DNA of 64,000 nt from an uncultured Vagococcus sp. (lineage in GTDB: Bacteria > Bacillota > Bacilli > Lactobacillales > Vagococcaceae), in the NCBI GenBank assembly GCA_965119435.1, contig CBCPLQ010000014.1, forward strand, positions 4,747 through 68,746, given 5' to 3'. Position 1 is the first letter of the stretch, and every line of letters begins with the position of its first letter. A program made the translations under genes and the position numbers. Of the stretch, positions 36,262-38,227 are shown in pieces. The notes under the pieces were generated by a model. The model made no database searches, was not told where the DNA came from, and saw only the letters and a list, made by a program, of their open reading frames with translations.

Positions 36262-36314
36262 GGGTGGTAACATTAAGTTGGCCAAACCTTCATTAATAAA
36301 TTATTTTATGGAGG
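36262..36314 (+). promoter_or_regulatory. RAT element 2 overlapping an SD-sequestering hairpin
   Basis: GGGTGGTAACATTAAGTTGGCCAAACC, 24/27 identical to RAT1; ccttcat pairs with atggagg. Confidence 0.7.
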
Positions 36315-36322
36315 CGACACAG

Positions 36323-38227
36323 ATGGGAAAATATAATGAATTGGCCCAAAAAATTGTAGAAAATGTTGGTGGAAAGGATAATATTAAAAGTTTAACACAT
36401 TGTGTTACACGGTTACGATTTAAGTTAAGGGATGAATCTCTAGCAAAAGATGACCTATTGAAAAATATGGATGGCATTGTAACTGTTATGAAAAGTGGTG
36501 GACAATATCAAGTCGTGATAGGTAATCATGTTCCCCAAGTGTTTACGGATGTTTTGACTGTTGCGGGTATTTCTGATGATACGGTTTCGGATGAACCAGA
36601 GGAAAAAATGAAATTTTTTGATCGCATAATCGATATTATAAGCGGCTGTTTCCAACCGTTTCTTGGTGTTATGGCAGCAGCAGGAATGATTAAGGGATTA
36701 AATGCTTTATTAGTCTTTTTAAGTACGGTGATAACTGGTTTTAATTATTCAGCAGAGGGTGGAACTTATTTAATCTTAAATGCTATTGGAGATAGTGTGT
36801 TTTATTTTCTACCTATTATTGTTGGCTACACGTCAGCAAGAAAATTCAAATTACATCCAATGACGGGAATTGTAATAGGATCTGCGCTATGTTATCCAGC
36901 AATTCAGTTGTCAGCAATGTCCAACCTAGAACCAATTGGTCAATTTTTAGGTAGTGATTACTTCCATACTTTTATGGGAATTCCAATCTTAGCAAATAAT
37001 TATGTCTCAACAGTTATTCCAGTTATTGCTGTTGTAGCAATAGGGGCGTATGTTCAAAGAATTGCGAAAAAATTTATACCTGAAATGATTTCCAATTTCT
37101 TTGTTCCTTTTGTTGTTCTATTAGTAGCGTTACCAATCGGCTTCCTAATTATTGGGCCTATTGTTAGTACATTGACAGCAATACTTAGTTCAGCTTTTAT
37201 GGCGCTAAATGATTTTTCACCATTAGTATTTGGTGCAGTTGCTGGATTTTCATGGCAAGTATTAGTCATTTTTGGTTTGCATTGGAGTTTGATTCCAATT
37301 GCTATGATTAATTTAGCAGAATTGGGTGTGGATAATATATTACCAGCAATATTTGCTGCAAGTTTTGCTCAAACAGCAGTAGTTTTAGCGATGTATTTTA
37401 AATTAAAAGATCAAAAATTAAAAAATTTATGTATTCCTGCCGTTATTTCAGGTTTCTGTGGGGTAACAGAACCAGCAATTTACGGAATTACACTACCAAA
37501 GAAAAAACCTTTTATTTTTAGCTTGATAGGTGGAGGAGCTGCAGGAGCCTATGTAAGTGTTGTTGGTGCCCAGTATTACACAATGGGAGGTCTTGGGATT
37601 TTTGGTGTAGTTAATTTTATTGATACAAAAACAGGGAATGCAAGTGGTATGTTCCATTCATTCGTTGCTATTATTATTGCTTCAGCAGTAGGCTTTTTAT
37701 TAACTTATTTCTTCTGGAAAGATGACACGGTTATAGAAAATAAAGTAGATAATCTAGATGCAAAAAAGATTTCTAAGGAAATGGTGACAAGCCCTATAAA
37801 TGGTGACGTATTACCACTTAGTCAGGCTAAAGACCAAGCATTTGCAGAAGGCGTTATTGGAGAAGGTATCGTTATTGAACCGAGTAAGGGTGAGGTAGTA
37901 GCTCCATTTGACGGACGAGTTATGTTATTATTTCCATCAAAACATGCAATAGGCTTACTTTCGGATAATGGGTTAGAACTACTCATTCATATTGGATTAG
38001 ATACAGTTCAGCTAGAGGGGAAAGGGTTTGAAAGTTTTGTTAATCAAGGAGATACAATAAAAAAAGGGCAAAAACTAGTCACTTTTGATATTGATTTAAT
38101 TAAAGAAGCTGGATTTAGTACTCAAACACCTGTCGTTGTTACCAATAAACAAGATTATTTGGATATTATATCGAAAACCGGTAAAAGAAAAACCACTAAG
38201 GATGAGCTATTAACAGCAATTATTTAA
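36323..38227 (+). CDS. bglP: PTS beta-glucoside-specific EIIBCA
   Basis: [29 protein letters not shown]; ATG 36323 after SD ggagg. Confidence 0.92.

Follow-up and report, generated by a model that had tools for sequence, protein, structure and literature searches.

A LicT-type RNA target joined to a Shine-Dalgarno-sequestering hairpin: probable translational control of bglP in a Vagococcus beta-glucoside operon

BglG, SacY and LicT have been the model of protein-mediated antitermination since the late 1980s, and the ribonucleic antiterminator (RAT) sequences that they bind are usually found and annotated through their overlap with a terminator. A beta-glucoside operon in a 64,000-nucleotide stretch of the genome of an uncultured Vagococcus sp. 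(contig CBCPLQ010000014.1; hereafter the window) raises the question of whether a RAT can have another partner. The operon, licT-bglP-bglH, contains two RATs, one (RAT1) overlapping a terminator upstream of licT, and the other (RAT2) located between licT and bglP, where it runs into a hairpin that includes the bglP Shine-Dalgarno (SD) sequence. A RAT competing with a ribosome-binding site would mean that the family also gates translation. We conclude from sequence and folding models that LicT binding at RAT2 probably frees the SD and activates bglP translation, and it is likely, to a similar degree, that the operon is under LicT control at two RAT sites with different read-outs. LicT would bind RAT2, and the output would be translation, not RNA 3'-end formation or RNA stability.

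RAT2 and the hairpin at the bglP start

The final two bases of RAT2 are the first two of a hairpin, CCUUCAU-U-AAUA-AAU-UAUU-UU-AUGGAGG, in which an anti-SD arm pairs with the arm carrying GGAGG, followed by an 8-nt spacer (cgacacag) and the bglP start codon, ATG 36323. An earlier reading of this DNA from its letters (the sequence-only reading) had described the terminal CC of RAT2 as lying within a hairpin that buries the bglP GGAGG, with cgacacagATG after it and no U-tract, and the sequence is as described. The hairpin is also part of the minimum free energy (MFE) structure of longer contexts, with GGAGG paired, and 10 of 200 shuffled sequences fold as well as it does. A terminator scan lists nothing at this hairpin, and its tail (CGACACAGA) has no U in the 9 nt after the stem; it is not the G+C-rich stem followed by 5–9 U that is expected of an intrinsic terminator. 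RAT2 is a RAT by sequence and is not a canonical RAT-terminator unit.

The MFE fold of the free RNA contains both the RAT apical stem and the SD hairpin; in silico, mutual exclusion is limited to the basal GG:CC pairs of the RAT versus the two G-C pairs that close the hairpin, both of which use CC 36287-36288. The folding model gives the five SD bases of the free window RNA a probability of being unpaired, P(unpaired), of 0.07–0.21, and of 0.35–0.98 when the RAT is forced or blocked. Predicted SD accessibility in the window is 0.16 with the RAT free and 0.78 with it occupied; the corresponding medians for 40 related leaders are 0.006 and 0.57, and 37 of the 40 have an SD P(unpaired) below 0.2 in the free RNA. 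The idea that the two structures compete for the same bases, such that LicT binding would help to free the SD, is supported to this extent, in that blocking the RAT in silico exposes the SD. The sequence-only reading had cautioned that only the CC is shared and that the switch may be partial; the CC is indeed the shared part, but it is not marginal, as it contributes the two closing G-C pairs and their removal abolishes the modelled hairpin. Two shared bases hold the hairpin together, which answers the worry over a two-base overlap. If the switch is partial in the window, this would be because its hairpin is among the weaker ones of the family (-7.4 kcal/mol for the window leader and about -8.4 kcal/mol for the middle of the family, estimated by eye), and in the model the basal leak of BglP may be higher there than in its relatives.

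These features suggest a two-step scheme. RAT1 would act as a classical antiterminator, active LicT keeping the RAT closed and the terminator blocked so that RNA polymerase enters licT. At RAT2 without active LicT, the basal GG:CC pairs would open, CCUUCAU would pair with AUGGAGG, and the 30S subunit would bind the bglP start poorly; with beta-glucoside present, dimeric LicT on RAT2 would close the basal stem and take the CC, the leftover UUCAU:AUGGA pairing would be too weak to last, and the exposed SD would allow bglP to be translated. Single-molecule work on the licS RAT showed that recognition loop 1, the contact site of one CAT monomer, arises when the basal stem closes, and that the A-run immediately preceding the terminal CC is contacted by LicT (PMC5393181); on this basis the CC should be locked up once LicT binds. 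The RAT2 gate would then be a second checkpoint following antitermination at RAT1. Basal read-through at terminator 1 would yield LicT and BglP would need a second, independent LicT binding event, a two-event logic that would make induction sharper and restrain the costly synthesis of permease.

Recurrence of the design and its alternatives

The window SD hairpin alone is statistically unremarkable, and its significance comes from conservation across genomes. A scan for the 23-nt RAT2 core with one genome per species found 38 loci in Clostridium, Erysipelotrichaceae, Enterococcus, Vagococcus, Peribacillus, Paenibacillus, Lactobacillus, Peptacetobacter and others. At 36 of these the RAT is followed directly by (A)CCUUC, a loop of varying sequence and length, an SD and the ATG of a bglP orthologue; the MFE folds of these 36 loci pair CCUUC with the SD (-6.7 to -11.9 kcal/mol), the paired arm ends 5–11 nt (mostly 7–8) from the ATG, and licT is immediately upstream of RAT2 wherever the flank suffices. 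The LicT proteins of related loci are only 38–47% identical to that of the window, which argues that the conservation is old and not a recent spread. The RAT2 core can be aligned with classical Bacillus-type RATs (GGAUUGUUACUG..CAGGCAAAACC), and where such a RAT precedes CCTTC, eight of the nine loci (clostridial) likewise pair CCUUC with the SD before the ATG. Altogether, 46 distinct leaders have the order RAT-(A)CCUUC-variable loop-GGAGG-ATG, in Bacillota and one Dermabacter and with three RAT sequence classes; the sequence-only reading had suggested a genome search for RATs with an anti-SD and no poly-U.

A second sample comprised 17 BglP-orthologue loci picked by protein similarity alone, with no condition on RNA motifs. 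Six have the RAT/anti-SD design and one has it in part; among these are Vagococcus fluvialis (73% identity), a Lachnospiraceae genome, three Enterococcus species and a Dermabacter. Canonical terminators are present at two loci, and the remainder lack a RAT or gave uninformative partial matches. Among the nearest bglP orthologues, those of Vagococcus and Enterococcus, the RAT/anti-SD arrangement is more common than any other design, usually in series with a RAT-terminator upstream of licT, and it is not peculiar to the window genome. The Dermabacter locus (L074, 1250-1303) is in a metagenome-assembled genome of a high-GC actinomycete (Dermabacter sp., Actinomycetota), and has an Enterococcus-type RAT (GGAUAGUGACAUUUAGUUGGCUUGACC) with CCUUU/AAAGG arms upstream of a bglP orthologue; from its sequence this module looks like horizontal transfer of a whole regulatory unit. 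That RAT plus anti-SD leaders are a widely distributed class among LicT/BglG targets, with the protein acting as a sugar-dependent translational activator, is in our judgement an evenly balanced proposition.

Clostridial leaders provide further variations. In the Clostridium paraputrificum group (L001-L003, L057, L059, L063) two classical RATs are arranged in tandem about 10–200 nt past the licT stop codon and ahead of one PTS (phosphotransferase system) gene, the first with a canonical terminator and U-tract, and the second with a CCUUCAUU..AAAUGGAGG anti-SD hairpin. A terminator-RAT and an anti-SD-RAT in series argue that the two devices are not redundant copies of one function. Another Clostridium locus, L005, has a wholly different 11-bp stem (CUUAAUUCUUC/GAGAGGAAUUAAG) that begins on the last C of the RAT and covers the SD.

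Pairing was evaluated in a MAFFT alignment of 36 leaders for the six core pairs; because the variable loop cannot be aligned, an anchor-based script was used to count pairs past the sixth. In the 36 leaders, 94.3% of the alignment cells of the six core pairs are paired, compared with 42–64% when the partner columns are slid by 1–3. Stem positions 1–5 are paired in 44–46 of the 46 leaders, and anchor-based counts at position 6 across the same 46 are AU 25, GU 5, UA 3, UG 1 and GC 1. Compensating arm variants include CCUUU/AAAGG in L074, CCUCUUAU/AUAGGAGG in L022 and the L005 stem noted above, and the arms co-vary with the SD (GAAGGU with ACCUUC, AAAGG with CCUUU, and UAGGAGG with CCUUCUA). In two comparisons, with permutation and Mann-Whitney figures that ignore phylogenetic relatedness, arms from the same locus form a longer contiguous stem than arms swapped between loci (mean 6.24 vs 5.77; 11/10000 permutations), and the SD is less accessible in RAT/anti-SD leaders than in 135 other strong-SD leaders of the same loci (mean P(unpaired) 0.165 vs 0.52; p = 3e-9). 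We take the main argument to be the complementarity kept across unrelated loops and RAT classes, with covariation as support.

Several points weigh against a LicT-dependent gate. LicT binding to the RAT2 variant is assumed. Shuffles of the 86-nt region fold as well as the region itself (z -0.35) and the window hairpin is weak, the SD is mostly paired in about 21% of the strong-SD control leaders from the fetched loci as well, and a strong GGAGG could compete well for ribosomes, such that repression would be modest. Both-sided change occurs in one of the six aligned pairs, and two-sided covariation is confined to position 6 and the divergent L005, L022 and L074, a limitation attributable to the double constraint on the core, from SD function and from the RAT; the loci are related, and the permutation and Mann-Whitney figures therefore overstate independence. 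Two loci of the Clostridium hominis group, L028 and L053, have an identical RAT2 core with CCUAUGG replacing CCUUC and fold at only -0.6 to -1.9 kcal/mol; judging by sequence, they may be natural variants in which the gate is lost. Finally, the Dubosiella contigs described below have flat depth, DNA carry-over may contribute to them, and termination cannot be quantified from contigs.

One alternative is that the RAT2 hairpin is an unconventional attenuator, either a terminator with no U-tract or a factor-dependent pause or terminator site, at which LicT antiterminates as at E. coli t2 between bglG and bglF. The layout does mirror E. coli bglGFB, with terminators flanking bglG (PMC1489936), the hairpin begins inside the RAT as terminators do, and two relatives, L030 and L054, have U-rich tails (5 U in 9 nt). 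Most related operons, however, show what a terminator of this system looks like: a promoter, a RAT1 variant and a separate hairpin of -22 to -31 kcal/mol upstream of licT, which in most cases starts 1–5 nt inside the RAT and has 5–8 U in the next 9 nt, and the window operon itself has U-tract terminators at RAT1 and after bglH. The RAT2-side stems of the family are about -7 to -12 kcal/mol (7 bp and -6.3 kcal/mol in the window), with a tail mean of 1.5 U per 9 nt over 40 leaders and none in the window. Their paired 3' arm is always on the SD and at SD distance from the ATG, a placement needed for ribosome exclusion and not for termination, which favors a gate; and the C. paraputrificum group has a true terminator and an SD hairpin in series. 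In Dubosiella newyorkensis (L021), single contigs from RNA-type runs cover licT, RAT2 and bglP, crossing the homologous hairpin. The contigs of two runs stop at an identical base, roughly 110 nt ahead of licT (+ strand, ~4478), with adapter directly following in one, and this end is probably the 5' end of the operon transcript; a pattern search of the L021 leader found no RAT1, and the contigs fit one transcript that reads through the hairpin. We regard attenuation at RAT2 as improbable.

LicT at RAT2 might instead act chiefly on how stable the RNA is or how it is processed, shielding the bglPH portion, with the SD hairpin a constitutive damper of translation that LicT leaves closed. NagY cooperates with RNase III (PMC12591593, PMC12502629), and many related licT-RAT2 spacers have an SD-like motif resembling the mRNA-stabilizing STAB-SD, but this explanation accounts neither for the anti-SD arm always starting on the terminal CC of the RAT nor for the predicted release of the SD on RAT occupation, and stability effects could merely follow from translation switching on; we consider it unlikely, if a little less so than attenuation. 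That the complementarity has no function, with CCUUC and GGAGG each conserved separately and RAT2 a relic or spare LicT site, gains from the unremarkable window hairpin, from the proportion of control leaders with a paired SD and from core pairs that scarcely vary. Against it, UUC(A) is absent from terminator-side RATs, where UAAAU, UAUUC or UGUUU follows, showing that LicT does not need UUC(A); moreover, the arms co-vary where the SD differs and pair better within a locus, and the design recurs in three RAT sequence classes. We consider this very improbable. A LicT-dependent translational gate at RAT2 is the reading that we prefer.

The operon and the licT leader

The features of the operon are listed in Table 1. 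LicT has an N-terminal CAT_RBD domain (PF03123, 77.7 bits, residues 1–54) and two stretches matching PRD (PF00874, 129 bits), corresponding to two PRDs; dimer binding to a RAT under PTS phosphorylation control is a trait of the family that would carry over to the window protein. BglP has EIIB, EIIC and EIIA domains by Pfam. The closest relatives of the window proteins are those of Vagococcus fluvialis (BglP 73% identical; the C-terminal part of LicT 66%), with Enterococcus species next at about 60% identity.

Table 1. Features of the licT-bglP-bglH region, in window coordinates
Feature	Coordinates	Strand	Basis
cre-like (CcpA) box TGTAAACGTTGACA, overlapping the -35 hexamer	35224..35237	+	Perfect consensus match
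Likely operon promoter, TTGACA, 17-nt spacer, TATTCT, with TG ahead of the -10	35232..35260	+	10/12 positions match
RAT1, GGAUAGUAACAUUAAGUUGGCUAAACC	35290..35316	+	RAT pattern match
Terminator 1, hairpin 35312-35369 plus U-tract, AAACC in common with RAT1	35312..35380	+	-26.7 kcal/mol, z -7.6
licT, BglG/SacY-family antiterminator, 283 aa, TTG start	35399..36250	+	NCBIfam LicT equivalog, 366 bits (cut-off 300)
RAT2, GGGUGGUAACAUUAAGUUGGCCAAACC, beginning 11 nt past the licT stop codon	36262..36288	+	RAT match; 23-nt core identical in 38 genome loci
Anti-SD arm CCUUCAU, first two C being the final two bases of RAT2	36287..36293	+	Sequence and folding
SD-sequestering hairpin (predicted), 7-bp closing stem, A/U-rich interior, no U-tract	36287..36314	+	-6.3 kcal/mol, z -2.2
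3' arm AUGGAGG with bglP SD core GGAGG (36310-36314)	36308..36314	+	Sequence and folding
bglP, PTS beta-glucoside EIIBCA, 634 aa	36323..38227	+	TIGR01995, 697 bits (cut-off 615)
6-phospho-beta-glucosidase, bglH/bglA type, glycoside hydrolase family 1 (GH1)	38260..39693	+	NF007158, 989 bits
Operon-end intrinsic terminator AAAGAGACU...AGUCUCUUU plus more U	39706..39744	+	Direct sequence reading

The two RATs are the only RAT matches in the window (0.00 expected by chance), and both fit an imperfect palindrome of about 27–30 nt with a 5' GGAU.GU.AC half and a 3' GGC.AAACC half, adjoining a PTS sugar gene and licT. The earlier proposal that RAT1 overlaps a normal terminator holds: the 3' end of RAT1 shares 5 nt with a 58-nt hairpin (-26.7 kcal/mol, z -7.6) that no shuffle matches in stability and that is followed by the U-tract UUCUUUUUU. 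Rfam returned nothing on RAT2 and only a sub-threshold match on the RAT1 terminator in the window (RF03530, bglG-cis-reg; 23 bits, with a gathering score of 80), and in nine related loci it gave no match on either RAT at E <= 0.01. The terminator 1 U-tract can also pair with the purine-rich licT SD (UUUUUCUUUUUU with AAAAGGGGGAAG, 35367-35394; -5.3 kcal/mol, z -1.4), a modelled pairing that may be incidental. The apical stem of RAT1 in the window is the same as that of RAT2 (..GUAACAUUAAGUUGGC..), and the RAT1 elements of L017-L054 form a variant of their own, in which the apical stem is longer (GGAUGGUAAUUG..CAAGCUAGACC and the like); the sequences suggest that RAT1 was converted or replaced in the window lineage.

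The putative operon promoter is the best promoter-like match in the region, and related loci have equivalent TTGACA promoters, and similar AACGTTGACA promoters, upstream of RAT1. The cre-like box is the sole match in the 64 kb window to TGWAANCGNTNWCA, which we take to be the cre consensus, with 0.14 matches expected by chance, and its overlap with the promoter points to a possible third level of control, by catabolite repression. No consistent or convincing sigma-70-like site was found between licT and RAT2, either in the window or in relatives, that could give bglP a promoter of its own.

We note that an ATG at 36260, 10 nt past the licT stop codon, is in frame with bglP with no intervening stop, and mechanical calling of open reading frames (ORFs) therefore lengthens BglP by 21 codons, across RAT2 and the hairpin. 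ATG 36260 was rejected as the bglP start, there being no SD upstream of it, the orthologues starting at MGKY, and the extension being unconserved; the BglP N-terminus from ATG 36323 aligns with orthologues. Re-initiation at ATG 36260 after the licT stop codon may occur.

The spacers between licT and RAT2 differ among the loci. In many relatives (L018, L025, L030, L044, L051, L054, L056, L060-L062, L065-L068 and L070) there is a strong SD-like motif (AAGGAGG, AAGGUGGUGA, AAAGGAUGUGA) about 30–45 nt upstream of RAT2 with no convincing ORF; 8 of 25 spacers match a strict pattern for it, and more have looser forms. L018 has a short frame stopping at a UAA inside the RAT. The motif could be a STAB-SD-like stabilizer, a ribosome standby site or part of a mini-ORF. 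The window, with a licT-RAT2 spacer of just 11 nt, does not have it.

Comparison with known systems

The canonical model of the family is a RAT overlapping a terminator (PMC5393181, PMC12591593, PMC1489936), and RAT1 of the window is a textbook case. The operon is similar to B. subtilis licS/bglPH and to E. coli bglGFB, in which t1 and t2 flank bglG, in having a regulator with a CAT domain and two PRDs, the same type of RAT, genes for the regulator, an enzyme II and a phospho-beta-glucosidase, two RATs around the regulator gene, and a competitor for the RAT 3' end. RAT2 departs from these in the nature of its competitor, a 7-bp hairpin with no U-tract whose 3' arm is the SD, and in its predicted output, which is translation initiation and not elongation. 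The overlap with the RAT is also shorter, at 2 nt (the CC), compared with 5 nt at RAT1 and 8 nt in licS (PMC5393181).

Non-canonical RATs without terminators are on record, and two papers call their function unclear (PMC5393181, PMC12591593; citing Gordon et al. 2015 and Tortosa and Le Coq 1995); BglG action at gcvA and gadE without a terminator is cited there too. RAT2 is like these in having no intrinsic terminator after it, implying roles beyond antitermination, but differs in that they lie outside the cognate sugar operon, with effects that are unclear or on mRNA stability, whereas RAT2 is in its cognate operon with a conserved SD hairpin; earlier overlapping reports are possible. Full-text searches gave no account of a RAT coupled to an SD-sequestering hairpin, and an earlier description in older literature is possible.

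If the interpretation is correct, the BglG/SacY family would be bifunctional in transcription and translation, RAT-over-terminator would be one of two expression platforms, and at least some terminator-less RATs of unclear function would be accounted for. RNA-seq of bgl-type operons in enterococci, clostridia and gut Erysipelotrichaceae would have to be reread, with transcript levels under-reporting induction, and the module would be a compact (~55–65 nt), protein-controlled translational ON switch for Gram-positive engineering. The C. paraputrificum tandem leader would be a case of transcriptional and translational control stacked on one leader.

There are parallels in other regulatory systems. 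TRAP controls the B. subtilis trp operon both by transcription attenuation and through a hairpin that sequesters the trpE SD. The Vagococcus operon would similarly have one RNA-binding protein acting on one operon at the levels of transcription and translation through alternative hairpins, including an SD-sequestering one. TRAP binding promotes SD sequestration and represses, whereas LicT binding is predicted to relieve sequestration and activate, and the protein and RNA families are unrelated.

Translational versions also exist of riboswitches, of T-box leaders in Actinobacteria and of PyrR control in mycobacteria. Our literature searches found no translational variant described for the BglG/SacY-RAT family. 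ANTAR targets overlap the ribosome-binding site in mycobacteria, where the reported outcome is translational inhibition (PMC12591593); ANTAR belongs to a different protein family. With riboswitches, T-boxes, PyrR and ANTAR, the RAT would have in common that one binding RNA module is tied to a terminator in some lineages and to an SD-sequestering helix in others.

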